NCBI GenBank assembly: GCA_965223495.1
Contig: OZ245001.1
Span: 3,735,833-3,799,832 of the forward strand
DNA: 64,000 bases
Origin: Nitrospirales bacterium
GTDB lineage: Bacteria; Nitrospirota; Nitrospiria; Nitrospirales; UBA8639
Direction: 5' to 3'
Shown: positions 25,011 through 48,647 of the stretch, piece by piece
How positions within the stretch are numbered: position 1 is the first letter of the stretch
How the letters are laid out: each line of letters opens with the position of its first letter
The notes under the pieces: generated by a model
Told to the model about the DNA's origin: nothing
Databases searched by the model: none
The model's input: only the letters and a program-made list of their open reading frames with translations
Position numbers and translations under genes: made by a program

Positions 25011-26000
25011 TTAAACCGTCACGACGATCTTGCCCTTCTGCCGATTGGAGACCATGTATTGGTGGGCTCCAACGATATCCGACAACTGAAAGGTGCGATC
25101 GATGATCGGTTTCAGCGCTCCAGATTCCAATCCTTTAAAGATGTACGTTTTCCCTTCCTGGAGACTGTCTGGGTTTTTCACGATCTCGAACAGCGTATAC
25201 CCCCGTATCGTTAATCCTTTGGAAAGAGCAGGGAACAACGGATAGGGAGTCGGGTGGGGCGCTAAGGCCCCATACTCAAAAATAATGCCTCCCGGCGCGG
25301 TTGCCCCGGCAAGCTGCTCCAGCATCGGTCCGGCCACAGGATCGAACACGACATCGACACCTTTCCCAGCCGTAAGGGACATCGCGCGTTCCACCAAATC
25401 TTCTTCACCGGTCACGATCACATGATTCGCCCCAGATTCGAGTAGAAAGGCTTTCTTGTCGGCCCCCCGGGTCGTGGCAATCGCGACCCCGCCCACGGCT
25501 TTCACGAGTTGAATGGCGGCTAGCCCCACACTGCAGCTGGCGGCCGTAATCAGCACGTGGTCCCCTTGTTGAATCTTTCCATAATGAATGAGGGCTCCGA
25601 AGGCCGTCATATATTGCATCCAAATGGCGGCTCCTTCTTCCGCCGTGAGCGCGGCAGGATATTTCGCCGCCGCAGAGGCCGGCACGATGGCACTTTCTCC
25701 ATAGACGCCATACTGGCCCATCGGAAAAGACGGAATCGTGCTCACGCGGTCGCCAATCCGAAAACCGGTAACCTCAGGCCCAATCGCATCGATCACCCCG
25801 GCCGCCTCATACCCTATCCGTGAAGGACATTGCGGGGTCTCCAGATATTGCCCCTTGCGAAACATGATTTCGGCACGGTTGAGCCCGAGGGCCTCGACCT
25901 TCAGGCGGACTTCGCCCTTGCCGGGTTCAGCCAACGGAAGCTCTTCGAGTTTGAGAACCTCCGCACCCCCGGTTTCATGGAAACGCACGATTTTCGCCAT
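25011..26000 (-). CDS. MDR family NADPH:quinone oxidoreductase-like protein
   Basis: GLNRAE, GYEAAG, ITAASCSVG and GKIVV motifs. Confidence 0.92.
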   Translation of the reverse strand: MAKIVRFHETGGAEVLKLEELPLAEPGKGEVRLKVEALGLNRAEIMFRKGQYLETPQCPSRIGYEAAGVIDAIGPEVTGFRIGDRVSTIPSFPMGQYGVYGESAIVPASAAAKYPAALTAEEGAAIWMQYMTAFGALIHYGKIQQGDHVLITAASCSVGLAAIQLVKAVGGVAIATTRGADKKAFLLESGANHVIVTGEEDLVERAMSLTAGKGVDVVFDPVAGPMLEQLAGATAPGGIIFEYGALAPHPTPYPLFPALSKGLTIRGYTLFEIVKNPDSLQEGKTYIFKGLESGALKPIIDRTFQLSDIVGAHQYMVSNRQKGKIVVTV

Positions 26001-26027
26001 TCAAAACCTCCAGAAAAGATCAGGACG

Positions 26028-26654
26028 TTACGAGTTGGATCGCTCCGTCACGAATTTCACGATCGCATCAATATCATCTCCCGCTTCCCTCACGGTTTGG
26101 AGAAATTCGACGGGAGTGCGGTGAATCTTATTGAGAAATCGGCGGTCCCCACCGCAGCTATACATCAAGTCGGGTGGCAGTTCCCCGCGAAGTTTAGCTC
26201 GGGCTTTTGCGATGATGCGCGGAAACCACGTTAACCCGGCAAGGGACTCGCTAGGGGAGGGGAACGCATGCAAAGGGGTTGGTGCCGGCGAAACCCGCCC
26301 CTGTTGTTCTCGGAATAAATAATCTCGTCGAATAGCGGTGATGGCCAGGACGGTTTCGGGATCCGGCACCCCATCGTCGCACCAATCTTCCACAAAATCG
26401 AAAATTTCTTGCGGCGTGGCTCCAATCGAACGAAGAAAATCGGTTTCCTCTGCGGAAAACATGCCTGCCACGTTTTGCGCCCCGTTGGTATAGGCCGTGA
26501 CTTTCTCCTGAAAAAGCGTCCGGAAAGGTTCCACCCAGTTTAGAGAATCCTGCTTCATGAGTCGCGTTTCCTGCTCGCGTCCCGCCACCTCTTCATGGGT
26601 GCCGCGGTTTTTCGAATCCGACGAGCTATGGGTTAATTGTACGGTTGTGCTCAT
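26028..26654 (-). CDS. DUF5069-like protein
   Basis: PRIIAKARAKLRGELP...C.GD..FL. Confidence 0.65.
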   Translation of the reverse strand: MSTTVQLTHSSSDSKNRGTHEEVAGREQETRLMKQDSLNWVEPFRTLFQEKVTAYTNGAQNVAGMFSAEETDFLRSIGATPQEIFDFVEDWCDDGVPDPETVLAITAIRRDYLFREQQGRVSPAPTPLHAFPSPSESLAGLTWFPRIIAKARAKLRGELPPDLMYSCGGDRRFLNKIHRTPVEFLQTVREAGDDIDAIVKFVTERSNS

Positions 26655-26706
26655 TTCCTTGTCTCCTTCTTTTCTAAACTTTTATGAATTAAATTGTATC
26701 ATTCCG

Positions 26707-27339
26707 TCAAAGGGCCACGGTGGCCGCGACAGACCCCTGCTGTTTCAACCGGTCATTTTCGGCTTCCAGCTCAGCCACCCGATCGCGGAAGGGTTGCAAG
26801 AGGCCCTCAACATCTTCTTGGGAGTACCGGGGTTGAATATGCTGGCGGCAATTCACATCCCACGCTTCGACCGTGAATCGGATGACTCGTTCGGGTCTGC
26901 CTTTGTACTGAGAATCCGTTAAGCGTGTGAGTAACTCAGGATCATCTTCGATGACCTCCGCCCGCCCCCAAATTTTGATGCGAGTCTGTGATGGATAATC
27001 CATCAGAAAGATAAAGGCCTGATCGTTCTCCGCCAGGTTGCCGAGGGAGATGTATTGTCGGTTCCCGACGAAATCGGCAAAAGCCAGAGTCCGGTCGTCG
27101 AGGGCCTGAAGGAACCCCTTCGGCCCGCCCCGATGTTGAAAGTGCGGTCGCCCATCGGCGCTCGCGGTTCCCAGATAGAAGGAATCTTGTTCGGCAAGAA
27201 ACTGAGTCAGATCCTCAGTCACCGTGTCCTGCCAACCGCCACGTTCGTCCATGCGGGCGTATTGGGCTCGGGAACCTTTTCGTTCTTGAATGGCCTTTAC
27301 GGAAGGCGTAAAGGCGATGTCGCTGATTGGGCGTGTCAT
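26707..27339 (-). CDS. Pyridoxamine 5'-phosphate oxidase family FMN-binding protein
   Basis: QHRGGPKGF, ADFVGNRQYIS.GNL and WDVNCRQHI motifs. Confidence 0.9.
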   Translation of the reverse strand: MTRPISDIAFTPSVKAIQERKGSRAQYARMDERGGWQDTVTEDLTQFLAEQDSFYLGTASADGRPHFQHRGGPKGFLQALDDRTLAFADFVGNRQYISLGNLAENDQAFIFLMDYPSQTRIKIWGRAEVIEDDPELLTRLTDSQYKGRPERVIRFTVEAWDVNCRQHIQPRYSQEDVEGLLQPFRDRVAELEAENDRLKQQGSVAATVAL

Positions 27340-27360
27340 TGTTTTGGTCTCCTTTTTGTC

Positions 27361-27823
27361 GTCATCCCTGCGGTCTTTAGCTTGCCCCTGCGGTATATGG
27401 CAGGGGGCAGGGGTCTCCTCCCTTTTCCTCCGTCACCCCTGCGTAGGCCGGTGTCCAGTTCCTTGTTGTCATCCCTGCTTGTCTCTGGCAGGGATCTCTC
27501 TTAGATTCCCGATAGCAAACGTCGGGAATGACGGAGATGATGAATCCCCGACTAAAAATTTCAGGAATGCCAGAGAAGGGAGATTCCCGATTAACAATGC
27601 CGGGAATGACGGGGATGCAAGATTTCTGACAAAAAATTTCGGGAATGACAAAATGACTAAACTCTCTATTTCTCTCCTTGCCGTCACCCCTGCAATTTGT
27701 TGGCAGGGGTCTTTTCCGTTTTCCTCCGCCATCCCTGCTAGTGAAGCCTGCCCCTGCGGTATGTGGCAGGGGACAGGTATCCATCTTCTTATTTGTCATC
27801 CCTGCAAGTCGTAGGCAGGGATC
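27361..27823. repeat. Cluster of CGTC-tagged REP-like palindromes (BIME-like mosaic)
   Basis: Multiple (C)GTCATCCCTGC-N-GGCAGGGATC and GATTCCCGA-N-TCGGGAATGAC units. Confidence 0.88.
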
Positions 27824-27835
27824 TTCTTATTGAAT

Positions 27836-28936
27836 TCATTCCTCCCACGGCAGCAACACGTAATTGCCTTTCACCTGATTGTTTGCCAAGAGCCGATGAG
27901 CTTCGGACGCTTGGCTGAGGGGAAACGTGCGATCCAGCGCCGCGGTAATCTTGCCGGTCCGAACCTGGTCTAACCCCCATTGCAAATCTTCCGGGTCGGC
28001 GAAGATCGTGCCGCGCAGTTGTTTTTGCGTGAAGAAAAAGTCCCGCACGTTGAGCGTGACGTCCGCTCCCGCGGTAAAGCCGTACGCCACGATAATGCCG
28101 AAAGGACGGACTGCCTCGACGATCTTGGCGAATTCATTCCCGCCCACATTATCGATCGCCACATCCACCCCATTCCCGTTGGTCCAGGCTTTCACGCGTT
28201 TCGTTACATCTTCCTGACGGATGTTGATCACAAGATCGGCACCCAAGGACCGCACGTATTCGCCTTTCACGTCATCCCGCACTGTCGCGGCGACCGTGGC
28301 ACCCAACGCCTTGGCCACCTGAATGTGCATACTGCCGGACCCTGAGGCTCCGGCCGTGACCAACACCGTATCCCCGGCTTTGACTTCTCCGACTTGCTTG
28401 AGGGCTCGAACCGAGGTACCAAGGATAACCGGAAGTGTGGCGGCCTCGGCGGCCGAAATCCCCGTCGTGTCCTTCAGCGCCCAGCGGGCAGGGACTTCCA
28501 TGTATTGCGCATAGGCTCCCGGGAGATGAACCCCCGGCACCACGAAGCTAGGCGAGTTGGCCAGAGGCCGATTCGCATCGTCTTCTTCATTGAGGGTAAA
28601 CCCGGCAGCGGGAATGACCCGGTCCCCGATGTTCAAAGAAGTCACCCCTTCGCCGAGGTCCACGACTTCCCCCACCGCATCCACACCCAGAATGTGGGGA
28701 AACGGAAGATCCGGCACGATGGCCCCTTCACGAAGGTAGTGATCCAAACGATTCAATCCGGCGGCCAACACTTTAATCAGGACGTTCCCTGGCTTGGGAG
28801 TAGGAGTGTCGATGGCTTCGTAGGCCAACACCTCAGGGCCCCCGAACTGCCGCAACACGGCTGCCTTCATGGTTGTGGCCGGTTGGGTGTGTGCAAAATC
28901 TGCTTGAAATGACTCTTGTAAGGTTGCGGTGCTCAT
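27836..28936 (-). CDS. Zinc-binding dehydrogenase/MDR oxidoreductase
   Basis: GLNRLD, PHILGVDAVGEV and TAGASGSG motifs. Confidence 0.92.
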   Translation of the reverse strand: MSTATLQESFQADFAHTQPATTMKAAVLRQFGGPEVLAYEAIDTPTPKPGNVLIKVLAAGLNRLDHYLREGAIVPDLPFPHILGVDAVGEVVDLGEGVTSLNIGDRVIPAAGFTLNEEDDANRPLANSPSFVVPGVHLPGAYAQYMEVPARWALKDTTGISAAEAATLPVILGTSVRALKQVGEVKAGDTVLVTAGASGSGSMHIQVAKALGATVAATVRDDVKGEYVRSLGADLVINIRQEDVTKRVKAWTNGNGVDVAIDNVGGNEFAKIVEAVRPFGIIVAYGFTAGADVTLNVRDFFFTQKQLRGTIFADPEDLQWGLDQVRTGKITAALDRTFPLSQASEAHRLLANNQVKGNYVLLPWEE

Positions 28937-29037
28937 GAGGTTGTTCCCTTCAAAAATTTAAAAAGTGAAATTGGTAAAAAAATGTATTTCCTCCCGAGGG
29001 TTTCCCTTTTCTAAAAATGGGAACCCAGGGGGACTGC

Positions 29038-29400
29038 TTACCTATGGTAATACCGTTCGTGAATAATCCGGCCGTCTCGCCATTTGGCTACGACGACCTG
29101 TTCGACATGCACCGGAGTTCCGTCCGTGGCGATCCAATCCATCACGGTTTCATAAAACGTCACGTCCTCCCCGACCCCTTTGGCGGTGACGTCGAAGCGT
29201 TTCCACTCTTTCACGGAATTGATGAATGCCTGTTCCCGTTTCAGGTTGGCCGCGCGGCCGACGGTCGGGGGCTGGTCGTTTTCCTGCATGACGGTATCTT
29301 CCGCATAAAACTCCTTGATGGCATCCAAAATCCGGCCTTCCCGAATGTAGGAAAACAGATCTTCAAGTCGGTCCTGTAATGTAGTCGTTGCTGTGCTCAT
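29038..29400 (-). CDS. SnoaL-like/NTF2 family protein
   Basis: AIKEFYAEDTVMQEN...VVAKWRDGRIIHERYY. Confidence 0.88.
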   Translation of the reverse strand: MSTATTTLQDRLEDLFSYIREGRILDAIKEFYAEDTVMQENDQPPTVGRAANLKREQAFINSVKEWKRFDVTAKGVGEDVTFYETVMDWIATDGTPVHVEQVVVAKWRDGRIIHERYYHR

Positions 29401-29426
29401 GGTGTTCTTCCTTTCTATTTCTTTCC

Positions 29427-29748
29427 GTCATCCCTGCTAGTGGAGCCTGCCCTTGCGGGTAGTAGGCAGGGGGCAGGGATCCATCTTCTTGTTTGTCATC
29501 CCTGCAAGTCGTAGGCAGGGATCTCTTTTAGATTCCTGACAAAAAATTTCAGGAATGACCGAAGCCCTGGATTCCCGATTAACAATGTCGGGAATGACGG
29601 AGATGATGAATTCCCGACAAAAATTTTCGGAATGACAAAGTTGATAAATTCTCCATTTCTGTCTTTCCGTCATCCCTGCTAGTGAAGCCTGCCCCTGAGG
29701 GTAGTAGGCAGGGGGCAGGGATCCATCTTTCTTTAGTCATGCCCTGCT
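29427..29748. repeat. Second cluster of CGTC-tagged REP-like palindromes
   Basis: Same units as 27361-27823 in a rearranged order. Confidence 0.88.
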
Positions 29749-29755
29749 ATATCCG

Positions 29756-30304
29756 TCACACCCGGGCCTCCAGTTCCCCGACGGCCGGAAAATCCACGGC
29801 GGTGTCTGCCACGTGATTGAAATAATTCGTGAACAACATGAGCCCGATGTTGGCCATGAGTTCCGCAAGGTCTCTGTCGGTGAAGCCCACGCGGCGAAGT
29901 TTGGCCACGTCCCCGTCCGTGACCAATCCGCGGTTGGCCACCACCTGACGGGTAAAGGCCAAGGCCGCCTCTTCTTTGGGGTCGGGGGACTCCCCGCGCC
30001 GACTATCGGCGATGGCTTCCTCACTCAAGCCAGCCATCCGGCCGAGCGCCGCATGAGCCGAGAGGCAATATTGGCAGTCATTCAACTCCGATACGGCCAA
30101 GGCGATTTGCTCGCGCAGCTTGGGAGAAAACGCGCCTTGGGAGAGTGCCCCGGAGAAATTCAAATAGCCTTTTAAAACGGCCGGGGAGTTGGCCATCGTC
30201 CGCAGGATGTTGGGCGCGAACCCCAATGTGTGTTCGACGCCCTGAAGTAACCGTTTGGCGGAACCGGTAACGGTGTCAGAGTCGAGAGCGGGTAAGCGTG
30301 ACAT
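29756..30304 (-). CDS. Carboxymuconolactone decarboxylase/AhpD-like peroxidase
   Basis: REQIALAVSELNDCQYCLSAH (CxxC...H). Confidence 0.92.
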   Translation of the reverse strand: MSRLPALDSDTVTGSAKRLLQGVEHTLGFAPNILRTMANSPAVLKGYLNFSGALSQGAFSPKLREQIALAVSELNDCQYCLSAHAALGRMAGLSEEAIADSRRGESPDPKEEAALAFTRQVVANRGLVTDGDVAKLRRVGFTDRDLAELMANIGLMLFTNYFNHVADTAVDFPAVGELEARV

Positions 30305-30367
30305 GATGAATTCCTTTCTTGCTGGCTGGCGTCATATTCAAACAATCAATTCATGAAATCGTGACAT

Positions 30368-30384
30368 TACAAGGCGTGTGCCAA
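30368..30384 (-). promoter_or_regulatory. sigma54 promoter of the AhpD-like operon
   Basis: TTGGCACACGCCTTGTA: consensus -24 element, -12 element is a GT variant. Confidence 0.65.
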
Positions 30385-30449
30385 AGGTAGAGAAATCACA
30401 AAGCATTGAAATATTTATACTTTAATTTTTAAAACGAAAAATAATAACT

Positions 30450-30499
30450 ACGAAAATTCGTGATACACGAAATTAATTTGCACAACAACGAAATATCGT
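30450..30499. promoter_or_regulatory. Palindromic enhancer boxes ACGAAAATTCGT (30450-30461) and ACGAAATATCGT (30488-30499)
   Basis: Located between divergent genes; the same motif recurs at 48587-48647. Confidence 0.7.
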
Positions 30500-30513
30500 T
30501 TATCTTGTGAACT

Positions 30514-32160
30514 ATGAGCGCCACCGTCAGTTACACCGCACCGGAATGTGCCGCACCCAACACGCTCGATTCCCTCAAATGCCTGGTGTTGGACATCGCC
30601 CAACAACGTTCACTGAACGATTTGCTGTGGCTCATCGTGCGGCGATTAGCCGATCGTCCGACCGTGGTCCTGGCCAGAATTTGGTTGAGACGACCCGGCG
30701 ACATCTGTGATACCTGCCGCTTCAAAGAGGAATGTCCGGATCAAACCGAGTGCCTGCATCTGGTCGCCAGTGCGGGACGGTCGAGAGGGGCAGACAAAAC
30801 CGAATGGTCCAACACCGATGGCTACTTTGCCCGGTTCCCGTTAGGGGTCTGTAAAGTCGGGACGATCGGCAAGACCGGAGAGCAGCTCATCATCAATGAG
30901 TTGGACAAAAACCTGGAATGGATCGCCAAGCCCGACTGGGCCAAGGCGGAAGGCATCCGGGGGTTTCACGGACAACCGATTATCTACAAAGGCGAAGTCC
31001 TGGGCACCTTAGCCGTGTTCGATCGGGAGCCCGTCACGAAGGAAGCCACGGTGTGGTTCCGTATGATCGCCGATCATGTGGGCGTCGCCATCGCCAATGC
31101 CCGCGCCTTCGAAGAGATCGAACACCTCAAATCGCAATTGGAATTGGAGAACACGTTCCTCAAAGAAGAAATCCGGGAAGCGCAAAACTTCGGCGAGATC
31201 GTCGGACACAGTCCGGCCATCGCCAACCTGGTCGAACAAATCGAACTGGTGGCCCCCACGGATGCCACCGTACTCATCTCCGGCGAATCGGGCACCGGCA
31301 AAGAACTCGTCGCCCGCGAAATCCATCGAAACAGTCAACGCAAAGACCATCCGCTCGTGCGCGTGAACTGTGCCTCCATTCCCAAAGACCTGTACGAAAG
31401 CGAATTCTTCGGCCACGTCAAAGGCGCCTTCACGGGAGCCCTGAAAGATCGAGCCGGCCGGTTTCAAGCCGCCGATGGCGGCACGCTTTTTCTGGATGAA
31501 GTCGGAGAAATTCCCCTGGAGATGCAAAGTAAATTGTTACGCGTCCTGCAAGAAGGGGAGTACGAACGGGTGGGAGAAGAGAATACGAGAAAAGTAAACG
31601 TCAGAGTCATCGCTGCCACCAACCGTAAGCTGGCGCAAGAAGTCGAAGCCCGGCGATTCCGGCAAGATCTCTACTACCGGCTCAACGTCTTTCCCATCGA
31701 GGTGGCACCCCTCCGCAATCGTCCCGAAGATATTTCACTGCTCGCGCCCACCTTTATGGCTCTGGTGCGAAAAAAACTCAACTGTACCGGACGGGACTTG
31801 ACGCAAGCCGAAGTGTTAAAACTCCAAAACTACCACTGGCCGGGAAACGTGCGGGAACTGCAAAACGTCATCGAGCGCGCGGTGATCTCCTCACGCTGCG
31901 GCTCGGTCAAATTCGACCTCCCGGTCCCCAACACCAACGGCGGGGCAAGTAAGACCCCAATCAAAAAACCGGAAGTCAAACCCGATCAGGTCGTGACCGA
32001 TGAAGAACTCCGTCTCCGCGAACGGGAAAACATCGAACTGGCCTTGAAACAGACGGATTGGAAAATCTACGGCACCGGCGGCGCGGCCGAACTCCTCGGC
32101 CTCAAACCCACCACCCTCCTCTCCCGCATCAAAAAGATGGGGATCGTGAAGGTCGCGTGA
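30514..32160 (+). CDS. sigma54-dependent transcriptional activator (Cys-rich GAF - AAA+ - Fis HTH)
   Basis: GESGTGKE, ESEFFGHVKGAFTGA, GTLFLDEVG, WPGNVREL; C-terminal HTH. Confidence 0.96.
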   Translation: MSATVSYTAPECAAPNTLDSLKCLVLDIAQQRSLNDLLWLIVRRLADRPTVVLARIWLRRPGDICDTCRFKEECPDQTECLHLVASAGRSRGADKTEWSNTDGYFARFPLGVCKVGTIGKTGEQLIINELDKNLEWIAKPDWAKAEGIRGFHGQPIIYKGEVLGTLAVFDREPVTKEATVWFRMIADHVGVAIANARAFEEIEHLKSQLELENTFLKEEIREAQNFGEIVGHSPAIANLVEQIELVAPTDATVLISGESGTGKELVAREIHRNSQRKDHPLVRVNCASIPKDLYESEFFGHVKGAFTGALKDRAGRFQAADGGTLFLDEVGEIPLEMQSKLLRVLQEGEYERVGEENTRKVNVRVIAATNRKLAQEVEARRFRQDLYYRLNVFPIEVAPLRNRPEDISLLAPTFMALVRKKLNCTGRDLTQAEVLKLQNYHWPGNVRELQNVIERAVISSRCGSVKFDLPVPNTNGGASKTPIKKPEVKPDQVVTDEELRLRERENIELALKQTDWKIYGTGGAAELLGLKPTTLLSRIKKMGIVKVA

Positions 32161-32301
32161 TGGTTAACGACAATGAAATGAAAAATTTCAATCTTCATAT
32201 CGCTTTTAAGCTTACGCAATAGAAGAAAATTGTCTTGGGACGGGCCTTCACCTATAATGTTTCCTGAACCTGGTAATACCCATCAACGACGGGAAGAGGG
32301 C

Positions 32302-32824: not shown

Positions 32825-32861
32825 ATAGAGTGCATTTGTTGACGATATCCTCATTCGAGAT

Positions 32862-33289: not shown

Positions 33290-33478
33290 ACGGGGCCTCC
33301 AGGACCTCGATCTTCGAGGGTGTGTACACGTCAGATAATTGAAGACAAGCGATAAACATTTCTCTGCCAGTTGCCTGGTGAATTTCGGTCTTTTCTCTCC
33401 TGAAATATTTCTTCCTCCACGTACCCTGTGGGAAATGTTACCGAAAAACTAGGATGTATCCTCCTCGTGAAAAGCAAG

Positions 33479-33625
33479 CGTCTCCGCGAACGGGAAAACA
33501 TCGAACTCGCGCTCAAACAAACGGACTGGAAAATCTACGGCGCCGGCGGTGCAGCGGAACTCCTCGGCCTCAAACCCACCACCCTCCTCTCCCGCATCAA
33601 AAAGATGGGGATTGTAAAGGCTTAG
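33479..33625 (+). repeat. Duplicated 3' end (HTH) of the sigma54 activator gene
   Basis: Closely matches 32011-32160 with synonymous changes. Confidence 0.92.
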
Positions 33626-38756: not shown

Positions 38757-38784
38757 AAATATCACTTCATAAGGGAGGTGAACG

Positions 38785-40598: not shown

Positions 40599-40810
40599 GG
40601 CGTGAGGAAAAACAAGCCTTACCTATCGTGACTTGATCCTACGGTGTTTGGCAGATGAAGTCTAAGTTTTTACAGATTAAAGACTGACGTGTTGCGAAAC
40701 ATTCCATGGCCGCATTGGGGCAGGCTGTGATGTCTTTGGCCGTTGACATTCCCAGATTACTCCCCTCCCATGAGGGATGGCTTTCACGCCCACACCCTAC
40801 GATATGAACA

Positions 40811-42409
40811 TCACTCATCGAATGATGGCGTTCTGGAACGCACGGACAACTCTAGACCGTTTTCTCTGAATTTCCTTACCCGCTCGTCAATCTTTGATCT
40901 GACCCTACGGTCCACAAATTTCGTTTCTGTCAGATCCAACGTCACCCGCTTCCCTTCCTGAAAGAAACGATCAAGTTGTGTTCTCAGAGGAATCCAAGAA
41001 GTGAAAATAATGGACCCTCGTAATAAAATCGTGACAGACTGATCTCTTTCATACGTGATCTTGGCATTCAATCTGAGCATGGACCCCCCGCGAATAAAAC
41101 GGATGATCAACATGACTCCAATCCCAATGGCTAACCCTTTTAAGAGATCAGTCGCCAGGACACCTAATATCGTCGAGACAAAAATAATAAACTGGTCTGT
41201 TCCCTCACGATACACAGCCACAAACTCGTGGGGAGAAGCCAGGCGAAATCCTGTGATGACCAATAACGCGGCCAAGGCCGCGAGAGGAATTTGATTAATG
41301 ACCCCTGGAATCAATGCCACACAGATCAGTAAAAACATCCCGTGGTAAAAATTCGCAAACCGGGTTCTGGCCCCATTATCAATATTGGCTTTACTTCGAA
41401 CGATTTCAGAAATCATGGGCAACCCACCAATGAACGCCGACAAGGTGTTCGCGATACCGGTGGCCAACAAGTCCCGGTCCAGATTGGTTTGTCGACCCCA
41501 GGGATCGATCCCATCAATCGCCTTAGCACTGAGAATGCCCTCCAAACTTCCAATGATCGCAAAAAGAACGGTATATTTGATTCCCGTCTCCGTGGTGATG
41601 CCTGAAAAATCTGGAAAGGTGATGGCATTCAGCAAATTACCTGGAACATTGACTAAAAACTTTTCGCCGAGTTCGTAGAGGTGATTATTGAACGTATATG
41701 ACCCCTTCTCACCAATTCCCAAAAATATCGCTATTGGAACCGTGATCAGTAACATCAACATGGGGGCGGGAATGACCTTCAATTTAGGATTTTTTATCAA
41801 GTTATACACCACCACAATCGTCAGACCCATCAATCCTATGAATGCCACTTTCGGGTTCATGTTCAGGACAAAGGAAGGAATGCTAGCGAGTAACTCGAGA
41901 GGCGCCCCCTGTGGATTCAGTCCCATCAAGACGGGAAATTGTTTGGCGATGATGATGACTCCAATGGAAGCCAGCAAACCGTGGATCGCCGCTTTCGGAA
42001 AAAGCCGTACAAGGATTCCGACGCGAAACAGTCCGAGGACAATTTGGTAGACCCCTGCCACCACTCCCACACCCAGCGCCAAACGATACGCTTGAAAATC
42101 CTTCACAGGGTCCTCTCCACCCGTAAACCCAAAATCCTGAACGCACCCTATGGCAATCACAATCAAACCCGCAGCAGGTCCCTTAATCGTCAGTTCTGAG
42201 TTGCTCAGGAAGGTGGCAACGAGACCGCCAACGATGGCCGTAAAAATGCCCGCTACCGCGGGATATCCTGAAGCCAACGCAATTCCCAGACACAGCGGCA
42301 ACGCAATAAGAAAAACGAGAAATCCAGAAAGGATATCGTTTTTCGCATAGGTTTTGAGCCCGTCAAGATTCCCCTTGGGAATTTCAGTGGAATCGGATGC
42401 CATACTCAT
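40811..42409 (-). CDS. SulP family inorganic anion (bicarbonate/sulfate) transporter
   Basis: VFLIALPLCLGIALASG, GPAAGL and EIVRSKAN motifs; STAS-like tail. Confidence 0.93.
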   Translation of the reverse strand: MSMASDSTEIPKGNLDGLKTYAKNDILSGFLVFLIALPLCLGIALASGYPAVAGIFTAIVGGLVATFLSNSELTIKGPAAGLIVIAIGCVQDFGFTGGEDPVKDFQAYRLALGVGVVAGVYQIVLGLFRVGILVRLFPKAAIHGLLASIGVIIIAKQFPVLMGLNPQGAPLELLASIPSFVLNMNPKVAFIGLMGLTIVVVYNLIKNPKLKVIPAPMLMLLITVPIAIFLGIGEKGSYTFNNHLYELGEKFLVNVPGNLLNAITFPDFSGITTETGIKYTVLFAIIGSLEGILSAKAIDGIDPWGRQTNLDRDLLATGIANTLSAFIGGLPMISEIVRSKANIDNGARTRFANFYHGMFLLICVALIPGVINQIPLAALAALLVITGFRLASPHEFVAVYREGTDQFIIFVSTILGVLATDLLKGLAIGIGVMLIIRFIRGGSMLRLNAKITYERDQSVTILLRGSIIFTSWIPLRTQLDRFFQEGKRVTLDLTETKFVDRRVRSKIDERVRKFRENGLELSVRSRTPSFDE

Positions 42410-42716
42410 GGATATGCGTTTCCCCTCTCGTCGGTTTTCAAACGAATCCGTACTGGTAAGGCTTGATCTTCCCCAGGATATCGGACATCGAGTGACGAAT
42501 TATATAGTAATTTGACAGGAGATGTTGAATGAAGCGAACACGGGCACATCACTCCTCACTCTTCGTCACACTACGCGCTCCCCTGAACCATAATTCTCAA
42601 ATAATTTTCTGTCAGTTCAATGAATCACTTTCCTTGTTGATCTGCTCGGGTCGTTGTACTAATCTAGTTCCGTCATTTGATGACTGAAGAACCCGCTCTT
42701 TATAAGGGAGGATTGA

Positions 42717-43679
42717 ATGGCTGATAAAAAGATTATCGCAGTCTTGGGTGCCACGGGTGCCCAAGGGGGTGGCTTGGTCCGGGCCATTCTGGCTGATCCG
42801 GCCGGTGGGTTTATCCCGCGTGCGCTGACACGCGATGTCAATTCGAAGAAGGCGCGGGAGTTGGCGCAAAAGGGTGCGGAGGTCGTGGCGGCCAACGTGG
42901 ACGATGTGGAAAGTCTCAAGCAGGCTTTCGCAGGGGCGCACGGGGCGTTCTGCGTCACCTTTTATTGGGAGCACATGTCACCCGAGAAGGAATTCGCCCA
43001 GGGCAAAGCCCTGGCGGAGGCGGCGAAAGCCGCCGGACTGGCCCACGTTATTTGGTCCACCTTTGAAGATACGCGCAACTGGGTGCCGCTGACGGATGAC
43101 CGCATGCCCACGCTCATGGGCAAGTACAAGGTTCCCCACTTTGATGCGAAGGCGGAAGCGAACGTGGTCTTTCTGGAGTGTGAGGTGCCGACCACGTTTC
43201 TGCTGACCTCCTTCTACTGGGAGAATTTTATTAACTTCGGGCTGGAGCCCCGGCAAGGTCCGGACGGCAGGTGGGCGATCACGCTGCCGATGGCCGACAA
43301 AAAGGTGGCGGGGATTGCCAGCGAGGATATCGGCAAATGCGCGTACGGTATTTTCAAGAAAGGCGCCGAGACCATTGGCCAAACTATTGGCATCTCCAGT
43401 GAACAGTTGACGGGAGCCCAGATGGCCGCAGGCCTGAGTCGCGCGCTGGGCAAGGAGATTCATTTTAACGACGTTCCGCCTGAGGTGTTTCGCACCTTTG
43501 GGTTCCCGGGCGCCGACGACATCGCCAACATGTTTCAGTTTACGCGGGATTTTGAAGAGGTCATTTGTGGGGCACGCAATCCTGCTGTTGCCAGGGCGCT
43601 CAACCCGTCTCTCCAAACCTTTGACGTCTGGCTGGCCCAGAATAAGGATCGGATCCCGCTTGTGCCATCGGCAACCTAG
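42717..43679 (+). CDS. NmrA/HSCARG family NAD(P)-binding protein
   Basis: GATGAQGG and PHFDAK motifs. Confidence 0.93.
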   Translation: MADKKIIAVLGATGAQGGGLVRAILADPAGGFIPRALTRDVNSKKARELAQKGAEVVAANVDDVESLKQAFAGAHGAFCVTFYWEHMSPEKEFAQGKALAEAAKAAGLAHVIWSTFEDTRNWVPLTDDRMPTLMGKYKVPHFDAKAEANVVFLECEVPTTFLLTSFYWENFINFGLEPRQGPDGRWAITLPMADKKVAGIASEDIGKCAYGIFKKGAETIGQTIGISSEQLTGAQMAAGLSRALGKEIHFNDVPPEVFRTFGFPGADDIANMFQFTRDFEEVICGARNPAVARALNPSLQTFDVWLAQNKDRIPLVPSAT

Positions 43680-43691
43680 GAGGCCCTCACC

Positions 43692-43787
43692 ATGAACGCC
43701 AAACACGTCGTGAGTCAGCACGAATGGCTGGAAGCCCGCCTGGAACTGCTCGCCAAGGAGAAGGCGTTCGATAAACAGCGCGATGAA
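43692..43787 (+). pseudogene. DUF899 family gene, N-terminal remnant
   Basis: MNAKHVVSQHEWLEARLELLAKEKAFDKQRDE, then similarity breaks off. Confidence 0.75.
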
Positions 43788-44078
43788 CCGGGTGTTCACG
43801 ACCCAAAAATTATCCTCGGACATCCCATACCAATGGCATCAGTTCTTTCCCTTCCTTTGAAGACCTTTTGAAATGTGTTTGAGCATTAGGGATGCGTTCA
43901 AGCCCGTAACCCCTGGGGCCGGTAGGACAAATGTTCTAGGGGTTCTGTCAAAGCCCTTAAGCTTGCCAATCATCGGATATTTGTTACACTGAGTTTACCC
44001 TCTCTAATTAATAACGCTCTCCTCAGTTTTAGACATTGCCGAAAAGCAAAGTACCTATCTTTTGGAAAGGGGGTTTCC

Positions 44079-44231
44079 ATGCGCAACATTTCATTGTGGG
44101 TCGTAGGGGCATTGTGTCTTTCTCTAGCTCTCATCGGGTGTGAGGACAAGGGTCCGGCCGAGAAGGCAGGAGAAGCCATTGATAAGGCCGTCGAAGACGT
44201 GGGCGATGCGGTGAAGGATGCGACGAATTAA
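44079..44231 (+). CDS. Small lipoprotein (50 aa; absent from the ORF track)
   Basis: Lipobox LIGC followed by EDKGPAEKAGEAIDKA. Confidence 0.85.
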   Translation: MRNISLWVVGALCLSLALIGCEDKGPAEKAGEAIDKAVEDVGDAVKDATN

Positions 44232-44658
44232 CACGGCATCCGTGTAATACCAGGTGTTGGAGGGTTCCGACCTTCGTTGAAAGATGAGCGAAGAAGAAAT
44301 GGGGATTTGTCTGTTCTCGACCCAATAGAGTAACAGCGTGATTGAACGAGTAGAATTGTTCGCCCCGATTTAGAAGCCCTGTCCTTATTCCAGAGACGCG
44401 GCTCTGGTGAATCAACGTTGTCGGCTTTTGGGAGCAAGGGAAACTGATTGCATAAGATCGGCCGAGGAATTGACGGTCGGTTCTTGGACGGCTCCCGACC
44501 CAAAGCGGTCATTAGTCTGGGAAGGACAAGTTGTTCTCCTGGGCAAATTAGACAGAATAGTGTTTTCTGTTTTATGGATAACTTTCACTTCTTTCCTAAG
44601 CTTTTAACACCTTTTGCTTATTTGGCAGGAAATACTGGGCCATGTACTTATGAAGTAG

Positions 44659-45261
44659 ATGACTATGTCTATAAATAATTCTACGTTCAAACGAAGACTA
44701 AGATCGCTACAGCGTCTAGATAAGCGTAATTCTATAGCATCTTATGTTGAGGAAGCTGAACGGCTGGCTCGGGATTATCCCGAGTATGCTAGAGCTTGGC
44801 TGGAATGTGGAGTGGCGTTTACTGAAATTGCTCGGTACAAAGATGCAAGAACTGCGTTTGATAAAAGCGCACGCCTATGTAAGCCTGAAATGAGGTATTT
44901 ACCTTATTGTTGGAAGGGGCTCCTTTTTAAGGAACAGGGAAAACTCCATATGGCTGAAAATTGTTTCCGACATTCCTTAAAGAAAAATCCCAAATATGCT
45001 GACACATGGGGTTTTCTTGGAGCGGTTTTGGCCAAACAAGGAAAATTCAAGGAAGCCAAAGCTGCATGGCGAAAACTCATTCGGCTTGGTACCGGTGCCA
45101 CAGAAGAAGGCCACTTAAATCTGGGGCTTATATTTCGTGCTGAAAAGCGGTACAAAGAAGCACTGAAACATGCTGAGATTGCAATTTCACTTGATCGAAA
45201 TTACAAGGATGCGAAACGGTTAAGAAAGGACCTCCTGGAGGTCCTAAATCACGGCATCTAA
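44659..45261 (+). CDS. TPR repeat protein (cassette-like)
   Basis: Several TPR helices; the stop codon lies in the attC-like R'' box. Confidence 0.88.
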   Translation: MTMSINNSTFKRRLRSLQRLDKRNSIASYVEEAERLARDYPEYARAWLECGVAFTEIARYKDARTAFDKSARLCKPEMRYLPYCWKGLLFKEQGKLHMAENCFRHSLKKNPKYADTWGFLGAVLAKQGKFKEAKAAWRKLIRLGTGATEEGHLNLGLIFRAEKRYKEALKHAEIAISLDRNYKDAKRLRKDLLEVLNHGI

Positions 45262-45313
45262 CCCGAAAATCAAATCGATGCATAATGACTCGCGGCTTAT
45301 TTAACTGTTCGAC
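45256..45313 (+). other. attC-like integron recombination site
   Basis: ATCTAAC-N5-AAT[C]AAAT...GCTTATT-N5-GTTCGAC, 58 bp. Confidence 0.6.
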
Positions 45314-45327
45314 GGCAGGAGAAATTC

Positions 45328-45369
45328 AAGGTCCGCTTTTTGGCCGGCTACCGACCCAAAGGCGACATT
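45328..45369. repeat. Imperfect palindrome of the AATGTCCGCTT..GGCC/GACCCAAAGCGGACATT family
   Basis: Related copies at 37040, 44473, 45861, 46307, 51536, 53226, 56558, 60432, 62125 and 63551. Confidence 0.8.
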
Positions 45370-45385
45370 CGGATAGCTGTCAATT

Positions 45386-45865
45386 ATGGATGGAAACAAG
45401 ATAAGGACAGCAATTCGCGATTTCCTCGGTCTGCTAGAAAACGGTGGCTTGTCAGTCGAGCAAGCCGAGGAAAAATTACCGGCCCTACTAGATCACCTCG
45501 CATTTGCACAGTCTTTCGTTTCGTTCACGTATGACGACGCGGAATACCCCGATTCCCCTGCCCAGAACTACGATACATTACGGGCAACCGTCACAAAGCG
45601 ATTCCCAAATTACGGCTATTACAACATTGCCGAGAAAATCACAACCGACATAGGTGATTCGGGAACATTGGTGGGTGACGCCATAGATGATCTAGCCGAC
45701 ATTGCCCGAGACCTCTATAAGGTTGAGTGGTATTGGTCAAATACCAGCGAAGCCAACGCCCTATTCCACTTCGGGAATGACTTCAGGCATCACTGGCGAC
45801 AGCATCTCAGGGGATTGCAACTATACCTAGATGCCCTAGAGCTTGCTCGCGACCTTCCGGAATGA
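45386..45865 (+). CDS. DUF5063-like protein
   Basis: GD.IDDLADI..DL...HW..H motif. Confidence 0.72.
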   Translation: MDGNKIRTAIRDFLGLLENGGLSVEQAEEKLPALLDHLAFAQSFVSFTYDDAEYPDSPAQNYDTLRATVTKRFPNYGYYNIAEKITTDIGDSGTLVGDAIDDLADIARDLYKVEWYWSNTSEANALFHFGNDFRHHWRQHLRGLQLYLDALELARDLPE

Positions 45866-45911
45866 CCGGAATTGGCTGATTCCCGACCCCAAGCAGTCAT
45901 TCATCTATTTT

Positions 45912-46307
45912 ATGAATAAAGAATTAATCTACGTGGAAGTAAAATCGGGATATCGCGATAATGGACCTGCTTGGATCGGATTTCATGGAACTTCAAAATC
46001 AGGTTCCACAATCTATTTTAATGGGTTGGCTTTTCAGAGTTTAAAGGGCCGAGGTATGAGCGGCAATTATTTTGAGACTGAATCTGGGGAGGAATATTGG
46101 ATTTCAGGGGTTAAGAAAAAAGGCGGCGATCGTCACTGGGCAGGTAGCGGTAAAATAATCATTGATAAGAAGGCGGTGGATGAATTTTTGACATTAACAG
46201 GATTATCCTCATTACCACCAAATATAGAGCCGGAGGAATTGCTCCCTTCTAAACCAACACCTACCTTTCATGATAAACAAAATAAGCCTCTCAATGATTC
46301 CTATTAA
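45912..46307 (+). CDS. Conserved hypothetical protein (cassette-type)
   Basis: YVE.KSG..DNGPAWIG....SKSG.TIYFNG...GNY...GEEYWISG.KK.G.DRHWAG. Confidence 0.8.
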   Translation: MNKELIYVEVKSGYRDNGPAWIGFHGTSKSGSTIYFNGLAFQSLKGRGMSGNYFETESGEEYWISGVKKKGGDRHWAGSGKIIIDKKAVDEFLTLTGLSSLPPNIEPEELLPSKPTPTFHDKQNKPLNDSY

Positions 46308-46442
46308 ATGACTGCTTCTAACCACAGGCAGACATGTCCGTTGCTGACGAAGCACCGGGCTAGAAGCTGCTCCGGATACTCACACGATGTTTCCCACCCA
46401 TCCCGGTTCTGACTGGTTCCTGAATGACGTGTTCTTCTCTCC

Positions 46443-47141
46443 TCACACGTGCCCGTAGACAGGCACCAGTGCTCCGTTCGTCAGAGCGTTGGCCGGCGAG
46501 GCGAGAAAGGCGATGGTCTCGGCCACCTCTTCGACTTTCGGCCACGTCTCAAAGTCGGCATCCGGCATGGCCGTGCGGTTGGCCTTGGTATCCATCAGCG
46601 ACGGCAACACGGCGTTGACGAGAATGTTCTCCCCCTTGACCTCTTCAGCCAAGGACTGGGTCAGCGAAGTGACACCAGCCTTGGCTGTCGTGTAGGCAAT
46701 CATTCCTCCGGTCGGCTGTTTGGCCGGACGCGCACCAATGTTGATGATGCGTCCTCCCCCTTTCCCGGTCCGCATCGTTCGGACCGCCTCGCGGGAACAG
46801 AGAAAGCAGGTCATCACGTTGAGCTGGAACATCGAGCGGAATTGGTCGGCCGAGGTCTCGGTGATTGGGCCCATTTGGAATCCGCCCACCACGTGGATGG
46901 ACGCCCACAGACCGTCGACCCCTTGGTAAAACGTGTTGACCTGTTCCTCGTTCGTGACATCGACGTGATGGAGACTGACTCGTTCATGGTCCCTCAAGGC
47001 GAAGTGATTCAACTCCGCCTCGAGTTTCCACGTGACATGACAGATGGCTCCGCTGTCCAAGAACCGCTTCACGATGGCGGAACCGAGAAAGCCCGTTCCC
47101 CCCGTCACGATGATCTGTTTGCCGTCTAATGAATCATTCAT
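46443..47141 (-). CDS. SDR family oxidoreductase
   Basis: TGGTGFLG and YTTAK motifs; start moved to MNDSL. Confidence 0.93.
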   Translation of the reverse strand: MNDSLDGKQIIVTGGTGFLGSAIVKRFLDSGAICHVTWKLEAELNHFALRDHERVSLHHVDVTNEEQVNTFYQGVDGLWASIHVVGGFQMGPITETSADQFRSMFQLNVMTCFLCSREAVRTMRTGKGGGRIINIGARPAKQPTGGMIAYTTAKAGVTSLTQSLAEEVKGENILVNAVLPSLMDTKANRTAMPDADFETWPKVEEVAETIAFLASPANALTNGALVPVYGHV

Positions 47142-47154
47142 CTCTTCCTCTCTC

Positions 47155-47538
47155 TTAGAGTTTGCTGGGATCGTAGTAGAACTTAATGTGATCCGCTTTG
47201 CCATCGCACCACCGTGTGACCTGCACCTGATCGGGGTTGAAGGTGCTGCCATCGTTCATGTCCACCGTGAGCTTGTACTCCGCGAAGGTGACGCCATTGC
47301 CCTTGCCATCGTCCGGCCCACCGGCCACGGCCTTGATGTCGATGCCATGATAGGCTTTCACATTTGAGAGGATCTTTTTTTCGTTGTCAATTATATTCGC
47401 TTTGCCTTCTACCTTCGCGCCGGTCGCTTCTTCAATGACGGCGTCGTCGGCGTAGAACTCCTCCATGCCCTCGACAAACTTTCCTTCCTTGAGTCCCTCG
47501 ATCATCCGTTTGGTTTTGTCTAGCAATGTTTCACTCAT
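47155..47538 (-). CDS. SnoaL-like/NTF2 family protein
   Basis: GMEEFYADDAVIEE...QVTRWCDGK; paralogous to 29038-29400. Confidence 0.82.
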   Translation of the reverse strand: MSETLLDKTKRMIEGLKEGKFVEGMEEFYADDAVIEEATGAKVEGKANIIDNEKKILSNVKAYHGIDIKAVAGGPDDGKGNGVTFAEYKLTVDMNDGSTFNPDQVQVTRWCDGKADHIKFYYDPSKL

Positions 47539-47752
47539 GGCTGTCCTCCTTTTTTGGTTTGAGTATGGTTAATGGGTAACGACGTTTCCCTGTCAATTGG
47601 GAACTCTTTCATCATGGTGACTGTCTATTATGGACTCTGATCATTACACCCTGCTCCGGAGCTTTCATGCGGTTTTCTCGTGAATGTGACGCATGGTTGC
47701 TGGCGAAGCTGGTGTCGTCCTTTTCATCGATTGCTTGCCAACGAATCCTGCT

Positions 47753-48436
47753 TCACACTGACGCCATTTTTTCCGGTAATTGCTGCACGACTTCCTCGGT
47801 AGTCAGCACCGTGTTGGCGAGCATCCGATAGTTCACCAACGCGCTGGCATAGCCATCTCCTTCCGGAACTTTGGCTCCCGCCGTGGCATCTTTGACCACC
47901 GCCACTTCAAAGCCTTGCTCCAGCATTTCTCGTAAGTGTGATTCCACACAGAGGTTTGAGGACATGCCCGCCAGAATCACTTTGTTAATATTTCGCTTCC
48001 GTAATTGCAGGACGAGATCATTCGTTTCGGGACCGTAGACTTTGTGCGGGCTGACGACGATGGTTTGCCCATCTGTGATGTAGGGTTTGAATTGTTCCAG
48101 CCAATCGGCCCCGGAGCCCTCGAAATTCTCCAACCGCAGCGGATCTTCACGGTGGAACATGTTGATGCTGTGCATCACGGCTTCCAGCGTGCCCTCGAAT
48201 TTCCACCCGTGATCGGAGGGATAGTAATAGTAGGGGGAAATGAATACCTGCATACCGATCTCTTTGGCTGTTTTGAACAGTTTGTCCAAATGCTCGACGG
48301 TCCGGTTCTCGGTAACGCTTTCCCCGACGACACCCCACGCCACCCCGTGGGGGCTGAGGAAATCATTCTGTGGATCAATAATGACTAAGGCTGTCTGTTC
48401 GGGAACCATGTCCATGCCTAAATCGGGAAGTGCCAT
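47753..48436 (-). CDS. Isochorismatase-like cysteine hydrolase
   Basis: IIDPQNDF, HK and AGMSSNLCVESH motifs. Confidence 0.92.
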   Translation of the reverse strand: MALPDLGMDMVPEQTALVIIDPQNDFLSPHGVAWGVVGESVTENRTVEHLDKLFKTAKEIGMQVFISPYYYYPSDHGWKFEGTLEAVMHSINMFHREDPLRLENFEGSGADWLEQFKPYITDGQTIVVSPHKVYGPETNDLVLQLRKRNINKVILAGMSSNLCVESHLREMLEQGFEVAVVKDATAGAKVPEGDGYASALVNYRMLANTVLTTEEVVQQLPEKMASV

Positions 48437-48502
48437 GATGTTTCTCCTTTAAACATTGGGTTGAGGATTGTGAAGTCTCCGATCATTTTGTCAGTGTCTT
48501 AG

Positions 48503-48519
48503 AGCATGGGCCATGCCAA
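48503..48519 (-). promoter_or_regulatory. sigma54 promoter of the hydrolase-SnoaL-SDR operon
   Basis: TTGGCATGGCCCATGCT (GG-N10-GC). Confidence 0.7.
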
Positions 48520-48586
48520 TTGTCGTGGTTCATTTTTTGTCTTATTTTTCAATGTGTTATACAAATTTTTTCAAAAACCACATTCA

Positions 48587-48647
48587 ACGAAATTCCGTTA
48601 TTACCGCAAATTCGAGAACCGGATCCGTCCAAAAAACGAAATTTCGT
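48587..48647. promoter_or_regulatory. Enhancer boxes ACGAAATTCCGT (48587-48598) and ACGAAATTTCGT (48636-48647)
   Basis: Same motif and similar spacing to the sigma54 promoter as at 30450-30499. Confidence 0.7.

Follow-up and report, generated by a model that had tools for sequence, protein, structure and literature searches.

How might one regulatory protein command two operons that lie about 18 kb apart, and to what kind of signal would it respond? The question is raised by a 64,000-nucleotide stretch of a Nitrospirales genome (GenBank assembly GCA_965223495.1, contig OZ245001.1, positions 3,735,833 to 3,799,832; hereafter the window, to which all plain coordinates refer). Within it, the gene for a sigma-54-dependent activator with GAF, AAA+ and helix-turn-helix (HTH) domains is divergent from a six-gene operon (operon 1) for AhpD-like, SnoaL, MDR, PNPOx, DUF5069 and QOR proteins, and three further genes, for a cysteine hydrolase, a SnoaL-like protein and an SDR, form a second operon (operon 2; Table 1). 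An initial annotation of this DNA had described both operons and placed them under the one activator. From the sequence comparisons set out below we regard it as highly probable that the activator governs both, and as likely that the fuller mechanism proposed here is correct as a whole, that is, the activator with its sensor, the DNA dyads that it would bind, the two sigma-54 promoters and the repression of its own gene.

The activator at 30514-32160 is recognizable from its sequence as a group-III (GAF-type) bacterial enhancer-binding protein, and the domain order first assigned to it was borne out by Pfam, NCBIfam and alignment. The sigma-54 interaction domain (PF00158) is matched at E=1.8e-74, the GAF domain and the AAA lid also have Pfam matches, and a Walker A motif (GESGTGKE) and a GAFTGA loop can be read in the translation. 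The HTH_8 Pfam profile found no match at E<=0.001 in the activator; its HTH is supported by alignment to the NorR and FhlA models, which reaches residue 543, and can be aligned with that of PexR-like proteins. The genome contains one rpoN, 28 full enhancer-binding proteins and three HU/IHF-family genes. As a separate observation, a diverged second copy of the last 72 codons of the activator, including the HTH (69% at the protein level), is present at 33405-33620, past the toxin-antitoxin block that comes after the activator gene; the resident 3' end resembles the relatives more than this copy does (88% versus 68%).

The DNA in front of the two operons is organized in much the same way. The -24/-12 sites proposed in the initial annotation could be confirmed at both, with operon 2 showing the GG-N10-GC pattern expected of a sigma-54 promoter and operon 1 showing it in part, with a T at -12. 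Both motifs face a gene that starts 54-57 nt past the predicted transcription start. The pattern TGGCAY-N5-WTGYW occurs 62 times genome-wide on both strands, and a given stretch of 100 bp would carry it by chance, on the right strand, with a probability of about 0.0007. Two boxes of the type ACGAAAnnTCGT had originally been assigned to each enhancer; the four boxes are indeed found in the places given, 66-130 bp upstream, but each enhancer gains a degenerate middle box and so has three. The middle box of operon 1 is kept as ACGAAAAnTCATTGCAC in 12 Nitrospirales orthologues. In an alignment of 13 Nitrospirales intergenic regions, the invariant blocks fall at -24 and -12 (TGGCA and TTGTAAT at operon 1), at the three boxes, and at an element TTGCAC-17 nt-TA that ends 7 nt before the activator ATG. 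A side observation from the same regions is the sequence TTCGTG (ACGAA on the transcribed strand) at 30358-30366, directly downstream of the operon-1 -12 element and at about the predicted transcription start, which is conserved in the Nitrospirales orthologues and not shared by operon 2, and which may be a half-box or a leader feature.

The boxes are rare in the genome at large. The 4.71-Mb genome contains the exact box, read in either orientation, 12 times, and four of these occurrences fall in the 19 kb considered here. A weight matrix whose training sites came from orthologous loci and had been pre-selected with the consensus found paired sites at the operon-1 and operon-2 loci only, so that the genome scan for box pairs near -24/-12 sites that had been suggested as a check singles out these two places; with this matrix for the ACG type of box, the operon-2 boxes score 18.9 and 20.6, as high as those of operon 1. 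Other high-scoring single sites were checked as possible members of the regulon and rejected, being unpaired, without a -24/-12 motif and placed inside long open reading frames (ORFs; all but one of the sites lie within ORFs of at least 160 aa). The same applies to a box at 49480-49491 (ACGAAATATCGT, minus strand) within a 281-aa ORF (49029-49874) for a secreted protein with no family match: since it is unpaired and has no -24/-12 motif, it is probably a chance occurrence.

Comparison with other genomes extends this arrangement well beyond the Nitrospirales. Orthologous activators were collected at 80 loci, which belong to Nitrospirota, Nitrospinota, Planctomycetota, Verrucomicrobiota, Desulfobacterota, Acidobacteriota, Latescibacterota and Myxococcota. 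Upstream of these activators lie two or three ACGAnAtnTCGT dyads and a TGGCAC promoter that faces outward, and where three boxes are present the spacing of 17-18 and 20-22 bp recurs in other phyla. The fixed pattern ACGANNNNTCGT has a density of 7.8 per kb in the 150 bp ahead of 75 activators, compared with 0.02 per kb in the remaining 1.02 Mb of these loci, an enrichment of about 380-fold, which bears out the expectation that the motif should be conserved beside orthologous activators. Boxes, promoter and gene families recur together beside orthologous activators in at least six phyla. The activators of this type can be regarded, on sequence grounds, as an unnamed family that is defined by a C-x2-C-x5-C-x5-C-L-H loop in the GAF domain (the Cys4 loop, considered below) and by an ACG-N6-CGT triple enhancer.

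The gene families of both operons likewise recur divergent to the activators in Nitrospirota, Planctomycetota, Verrucomicrobiota, Desulfobacterota and others. When the genes at the orthologous loci were clustered with blastp and annotated with Pfam, an AhpD-like gene was the first divergent gene at 36 loci, followed in frequency by alpha/beta hydrolase (21 loci), PNPOx (17), SnoaL and DUF1348 (13 each), MDR/QOR (12 loci, 14 genes), isochorismatase (11), DUF5069 (7), OYE (6), SDR and thioredoxin (4 each) and DsrE-like (3) families. The orthologues of the operon-2 hydrolase in activator-linked operons are 81-84% identical to it. In genomes of the same genus an orthologue of 81-82% identity is part of an activator-linked operon in the order AhpD-SnoaL-hydrolase (loci L007-L009, L082-L084 and L126), and at four further loci (L019, L023, L045 and L050) the hydrolase gene is directly divergent to the activator. 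Moreover, the Nitrospira genome that holds L019 (G043) has three box-plus-promoter units spread over 27 kb: apart from the activator-hydrolase pair there are two units, 18-27 kb from it, in which triple boxes and a TGGCAC-N5-TTGA promoter stand ahead of an AhpD-like gene (L091) and of a gene for a YHS-like secreted protein that is followed by OYE (L098). A dispersed layout is thus seen independently in that genome. Orthologous loci, the linkage of the hydrolase and this second dispersed regulon all support the proposal of one activator for two operons. A further claim, that the nine enzymes form a single pathway, proved too strong; since the genes present differ from one genome to the next, a collection of detoxification enzymes fits better than a linear pathway. 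The proteome paper on Nitrospira marina and its supplements had no entry that could be mapped to these genes.

What the activator might sense is suggested by its GAF domain. The residues C65, C68, C74, C80 and H82 are each kept in 95-97% of 79 orthologues, and in a joint alignment with NorR and PexR-like proteins the loop that carries them is a 27-column insertion, missing from the GAF domains of both. An AlphaFold model of residues 1-222 (predicted local distance difference test score, pLDDT, 88.9) places the loop, with a pLDDT of 92-93, between the first two GAF strands. Foldseek searches with the GAF model had GAF domains as top matches, including that of the A. aeolicus Nlh2 protein, and against the PDB they returned generic GAF domains and no cysteine-cluster analogue of the loop. 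A profile search of 1.84 billion protein representatives gave 1,592 matches at E<=1e-30, many of them multi-GAF giants in which only the C-terminal half of the profile is matched; the C-x2-C-x5-C-x5-C-L-H motif is present in 63 of the 150 best representatives. Of ten longer proteins that were scanned, eight proved to be sigma-54 activators, in part with additional PAS or GAF domains, and the other two (P0078 and P0095) join the Cys4-GAF module to a kinase, of the Ser/Thr type in one and of the histidine type (HisKA_3/HATPase_c) in the other.

Judging from the content of the regulon, the signal could be a thiol-reactive oxidant or electrophile that acts at the Cys4 loop, an assignment that we hold tentatively and at slightly less than an even chance. 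A wider proposal is more speculative still: the Cys4 GAF may be an undescribed, portable metal-thiolate or Fe-S module for thiol-reactive oxidants and electrophiles, which heads a cross-phylum sigma-54 regulon for defence against electrophiles and quinones (AhpD-like, OYE, QOR, cysteine hydrolase, PNPOx and thioredoxin), is fused elsewhere to histidine and Ser/Thr kinases, and, through same-sensor paralogues with re-tuned operators, turns one signal into insulated outputs. The strongest competitor of a stress response is a catabolic switch, in which the GAF domain would bind a small molecule, for example an N-heterocyclic or aromatic amide, that the enzymes then degrade. GAF domains are often small-ligand binders, the nearest NCBIfam models for the operon-2 hydrolase are biuret hydrolase and RutB, and isochorismatase-type amidases, PNPOx flavoproteins, SnoaL-fold proteins and dehydrogenases are all known from catabolic clusters. 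We nevertheless consider a catabolic role unlikely, as linked genes for a transporter or for ring cleavage are missing, the genes and their order differ widely from genome to genome with the AhpD-like CxxC protein as the constant partner, electrophiles and oxidants are what OYE, QOR and thioredoxin typically respond to, and what is invariant in the sensor is a cluster of cysteines and not a ligand pocket.

A different challenge, which concerns operon 2, comes from a paralogue elsewhere in the genome (C1:3331164-3332810) that is 78% identical to the activator, has the same Cys4 loop and shares 76% identity in the HTH region. Either this protein or both paralogues together, and not the window activator alone, could in principle drive operon 2, and one of the boxes of the paralogue is a hybrid (ATGAAATATCGT). 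Its intergenic region has the same three-box geometry, but the enhancer consists of ATGAAAnnTCAT three times (the ATG/CAT type) with a promoter TGGCAT-N5-CTGCA, and paired sites of this type are found at the paralogue locus only, genome-wide. The recognition helix has changed as well: it reads NPTTLRSRIKK, as against KPTTL(L/A/S/V/I/T)SR in the activator and about 75 orthologues with ACG boxes, none of which has the K-to-N or the L-to-R change. Given these altered boxes and the altered helix, the ACG boxes of operon 2, which score as high as those of operon 1, fit the local activator, and control by the paralogue seems quite improbable. At its own locus (C1:3331099-3332810) the promoter of the paralogue faces genes for a 118-aa secreted protein and a 133-aa protein that by eye is possibly cupredoxin-like. 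Two members of the activator family are also seen in Desulfosarcina alkanivorans (L090 and L050), each divergent to an isochorismatase-type hydrolase with ACGAAATATCGT boxes.

The surroundings of operon 2 give rise to yet another alternative. Two fragments of a DUF899 (thioredoxin-like) gene on the plus strand, an N-terminal one at about 43692-43790 and a C-terminal-like one at about 48753-48893, both identified by eye without a profile search, bracket a segment of about 4.9 kb that comprises cassette-like cargo and operon 2 with its complete enhancer. No remnant of an activator was found beside the operon-2 boxes, and a search for a copy of the operon-2 promoter region among the fetched loci gave no match, the hydrolase coding sequence alone matching at the DNA level. 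Operon 2 has thus been moved, or acquired, as a self-contained promoter-plus-enhancer unit. The position between the split fragments, the missing activator remnant and an unusual spacing of the distal box could also mean that the enhancer is an inert relic of inserted DNA, with operon 2 silent or read from another promoter. This is very unlikely in our estimation: none of the three genes is disrupted, the promoter agrees well with GG-N10-GC, the proximal box lies at the distance seen in operon 1, and the two scored boxes fit the consensus of the resident activator. That the boxes bind some other transcription factor, such as a repressor, and lie near sigma-54 promoters by accident can be all but dismissed, for although short A/T-centred palindromes are a common type of operator, these co-occur with the activator family in at least six phyla, invariably as two or three phased dyads that keep enhancer distance to a -24/-12 motif, in the paralogue their sequence has shifted along with the HTH, and no other regulator gene is linked at operon 2.

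Several points nonetheless weigh against the proposal that one Cys4-GAF activator controls both operons as described. The -12 element of operon 1 reads GT and lacks the consensus C, the distal box of operon 2 is 11 bp, or one extra helical turn, further out than that of operon 1, and operon 2 lies in an inserted segment with a promoter region unmatched among the fetched loci. In three relatives no boxes were found within 1.5 kb of the closest orthologues of the operon-2 SnoaL-like gene. The weight-matrix evidence is partly circular because of the way its training sites were chosen, while the fixed-pattern enrichment used a pattern from the window alone. The paralogue, with the same sensor, could cross-bind; the Cys4 loop could bind zinc in a purely structural role; and the repeat arrays inside operon 1 (355 and 496 bp) may attenuate its distal genes.

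With respect to the genes themselves, the composition and coordinates of both operons given in the initial annotation could be retained, apart from the start of the SDR, which was moved. A 140-aa ORF at 27377-27799 was considered as a seventh gene of operon 1 and rejected, as it has no family match and is made of repeats resembling repetitive extragenic palindromes (REP); since it belongs to a repeat array and is no gene, the original count of six is right. Examples of the repeat units in the arrays are CCCTGCCCCCTGCCTACTACCC...GGGCAGG and GTCATTCCCGACATTGTTAATCGGGAATC, and the larger array occupies the place where relatives have alpha/beta-hydrolase and OYE genes. Both operons carry a SnoaL-like gene; the operon-2 protein has a Pfam match below the gathering score and is 28% identical to its operon-1 counterpart. 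The genes of the regulon (25011-32160 and 46443-48436) have a G+C content of 52-60%, compared with 49% for the genome and 45-49% for the intervening accessory DNA.

Table 1. Features of the activator locus and of the two operons in window coordinates
Feature	Position	Strand	Basis and remarks
Operon 1, gene 6: NAD(P)H:quinone oxidoreductase (PIG3/QOR type)	25011..26000	-	Pfam, NCBIfam
Operon 1, gene 5: DUF5069 protein	26028..26654	-	Pfam
Operon 1, gene 4: PNPOx-like FMN flavoprotein	26707..27339	-	Pfam, NCBIfam
Second REP-like repeat array, with spurious 140-aa ORF	27340..27835	.	Sequence, relatives
Operon 1, gene 3: zinc-type MDR dehydrogenase/reductase	27836..28936	-	Pfam, NCBIfam
Operon 1, gene 2: SnoaL-like (NTF2-fold)	29038..29400	-	Pfam
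REP-like palindromic repeat array	29401..29755	.	In relatives the AhpD-like and SnoaL genes are about 70 bp apart
Operon 1, gene 1: AhpD-like, CMD family, CxxC-x3-H motif (ELNDCQYCLSAH)	29756..30304	-	Pfam, NCBIfam, motif read
Sigma-54 promoter of operon 1, TGGCAC-acgcc-TTGTA	30368..30383	-	Start predicted near 30358, leader about 54 nt
IHF-like site TTTCAATGCTTTG, 12/13 to WATCAANNNNTTR	30399..30411	-	Sequence reading; between promoter and boxes; partly conserved columns
Operon-1 enhancer box 1 (promoter-proximal), ACGAAAATTCGT	30450..30461	.	Centre 74 bp from the -24 GG; invariant alignment columns
Operon-1 enhancer box 2, degenerate, ACGAAATTAATT	30467..30478	.	17 bp from box 1, 21 bp from box 3; overlaps putative -35 of the activator
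Putative sigma-70-type activator promoter, TTGCAC, 17 nt, TATCTT, 7 nt to ATG	30478..30506	+	Conservation; box 3 in spacer
Operon-1 enhancer box 3, ACGAAATATCGT	30488..30499	.	End 14 nt ahead of activator ATG
Sigma-54 enhancer-binding protein: Cys4-GAF sensor, AAA+, C-terminal Fis-type HTH (AAELLGLKPTTLLSRIKKMG)	30514..32160	+	Pfam, NCBIfam
Codons of the C65-x2-C68-x5-C74-x5-C80-L-H82 loop in the GAF domain, putative metal/thiol sensor	30706..30759	+	Conservation, alignment, model
Operon 2, gene 3: SDR	46443..47141	-	ORF reading; start moved to ATG at 47141
Operon 2, gene 2: SnoaL-like	47155..47538	-	Weak Pfam match, E=1.7e-4, under gathering score
Operon 2, gene 1: isochorismatase-family cysteine hydrolase, D21/K132/C164 triad	47753..48436	-	Pfam, NCBIfam, triad read
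Sigma-54 promoter of operon 2, TGGCAT-ggccc-ATGCT (GG-N10-GC)	48503..48518	-	Leader predicted about 57 nt
IHF-like site TTTCAATGTGTTA, 12/13	48547..48559	+	Sequence reading; between promoter and boxes
Operon-2 enhancer box 1, ACGAAATTCCGT	48587..48598	.	Centre 76 bp from the -24 GG (operon 1: 74 bp)
Operon-2 enhancer box 2, degenerate, CCGCAAATTCGA	48604..48615	.	17 bp from box 1, offset as in operon 1
Operon-2 enhancer box 3, ACGAAATTTCGT, perfect palindrome	48636..48647	.	32 bp from box 2 (21 plus 11)

The promoter of the activator gene itself seems to be part of the same circuit. The TTG and TA of the TTGCAC-17-TATCTT element are invariant in the orthologues, as is the retention of its spacing to the ATG, the element overlaps boxes 2 and 3, and no Shine-Dalgarno sequence is found ahead of the ATG. 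A scan with the sigma-70 consensus detected no activator promoter above threshold, and for this reason we infer its existence from conservation: a weak sigma-70-type promoter that gives rise to a leaderless activator mRNA is plausible. With the promoter buried in boxes 2 and 3 and the mRNA leaderless, bound activator should occlude the promoter and repress its own synthesis, a prediction from promoter layout to which we give an even chance.

Taken together, the proposed sequence of events would be as follows. Dimers of the activator would bind the three tandem CG-N6-CG dyads, for which conservation indicates a spacing of about 17 and 21 bp and which lie about 65-130 bp upstream of each of the two sigma-54 promoters. 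The GAF domain, if it acts as in the NorR and PexR families, would hold the ATPase off until a signal arrives. The cysteine loop would serve either as the holder of a metal (Zn or an Fe-S cluster) or as a thiol switch, as the content of the regulon suggests, and its modification by peroxide, quinone, HOCl or a reactive nitrogen or sulfur species would lift the inhibition. The AAA+ ring could then remodel the sigma-54 holoenzyme, with the DNA bent across the A/T-rich spacer, and the holoenzyme would transcribe the six genes of operon 1 and the three of operon 2, a variable set of detoxification and redox enzymes. The weak promoter in boxes 2 and 3, together with the leaderless mRNA, would add self-repression.

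How does this circuit compare with those already described? The closest parallel in logic is PexR of Myxococcus xanthus, an enhancer-binding protein with GAF, AAA+ and HTH domains that senses H2O2 and binds three CACCG-N6-CGGTG dyads divergent to ahpC; its GAF domain, which binds Zn/Fe, is autoinhibitory and gives up the metal on exposure to H2O2, and its mRNA has been proposed to be leaderless, with an upstream activating sequence (UAS) that overlaps and occludes its own promoter (Bastida-Martinez et al., NAR 2025, PMC12754779). PexR-like loci in the Myxococcota (L105 and L112) were recovered by means of the PexR operator pattern. The window activator has the same domain order and is 41% identical to the L105 protein over residues 155-543, the HTH regions are alike (KPSTLQSRMKKLG against KPTTLLSRIKKMG), and at L105 three dyads end 10 nt before the regulator ATG with a divergent TGGCAC-N5-GTGCT promoter, much as in the window. 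Both sets of dyads are of the CG-N6-CG form with an A/T-rich centre (CACCGATATGTCGGTG at L105, ACGAAATTTCGT in the window), and a leaderless regulator mRNA is proposed in both cases. The half-sites differ, however, being CACCG in PexR and nnACG in the window, so that the window boxes do not conform to the PexR UAS. The metal site of PexR (H102, H120, C122 and D140; DPYDG...HxC), which the L105 and L112 proteins carry as H-x17-H-x-C-x17-D, is missing in the window family, where the positions read G/H/T and are of low conservation, whereas PexR is without the 27-residue Cys4 loop. The targets are also distinct: PexR has ahpC, katB and ccp, the window AhpD-like, cysteine hydrolase, PNPOx, QOR and OYE proteins, and no AhpC, catalase or cytochrome c peroxidase family was present among the Pfam-annotated blastp clusters of divergent genes.

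The best NCBIfam model for the activator is that of NorR, the nitric oxide (NO) sensor of norVW in E. coli (b2709). The NorR GAF domain holds a mononuclear iron site formed by Asp96 and Asp99 in the DPYDG motif, Cys113 and Asp131. Against NF003451 the window activator scores 388.4 bits over residues 153-543 only, short of the equivalog cut-off of 476; the 44% identity to NorR is confined to the AAA+ and HTH regions, and BLAST gave no alignment between the two GAF domains. In the joint alignment the DPYDG and HAC motifs of NorR have no counterpart in the window family, and C113 is likewise absent; NorR and the PexR-like proteins share the DPYDG...HxC metal motif. The geometry is again similar, as the three UAS of NorR follow one another at about two helical turns and lie 57-112 bp upstream of the divergent norV promoter (read at locus L089), but its operator is GT-N7-AC (GTCAATTTGAC; GTCAnnTnGAC) and not ACG-N6-CGT, and the target genes differ. 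Three UAS, autoinhibition by the GAF domain and an overlap with the promoter of the regulator itself all have precedents in PexR and NorR. The logic is thus shared with NorR and PexR while the defining features of both are missing, and the window system would work like them and be identical to neither; on sequence the activator is an uncharacterised relative of the NO sensor and the peroxide sensor.

Two further regulators are conceptual relatives only. FisR is a sigma-54 activator of the sulfide oxidation genes pdo, sqr and tauE in Cupriavidus and Acinetobacter, and its sensing of reactive sulfur species in Cupriavidus is reported to need cysteines of the regulatory domain (PMC7315123 and its reference 26). 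It resembles the window activator as a sigma-54 activator divergent to a detoxification operon; of its regulon none is linked here, neither pdo nor sqr being found in the window operons, and DsrE-like and thioredoxin genes occur at just 3-4 orthologous loci of the window family. OrpR of Desulfovibrio vulgaris is a redox-sensing sigma-54 activator with a PAS-[4Fe-4S] domain (PMC8359166). Its N-terminal domain senses redox state through a cysteine-bound iron-sulfur cluster, in a PAS and not a GAF domain, but it is inactivated by oxidation and has a regulon of its own, whereas the window activator would be activated. Literature searches returned PexR, NorR, FisR and OrpR and no described regulator with this sensor, operator or regulon.

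The regulator family is therefore widespread and, in the literature searched, uncharacterised. In nitrite oxidisers, planctomycetes and verrucomicrobia genetic manipulation is difficult and little is known of how stress responses are regulated, and here the DNA yields a complete and testable circuit of sensor, operator, promoters and targets. What the window adds is a clear dispersed regulon, its independent recurrence in another genome, a re-tuned operator in a paralogue, and evidence that a unit of promoter plus enhancer is able to move. The pair of paralogues offers a natural experiment on how operator specificity changes in enhancer-binding proteins. The regulon also provides a functional context for the AhpD-like CMD, DUF1348, DUF5069, PNPOx-like and isochorismatase-type families by setting them beside electrophile and quinone reductases. 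If the Cys4-GAF loop does sense oxidants or electrophiles, it would represent a third sensing chemistry in the NorR/PexR lineage and a candidate part for biosensors.

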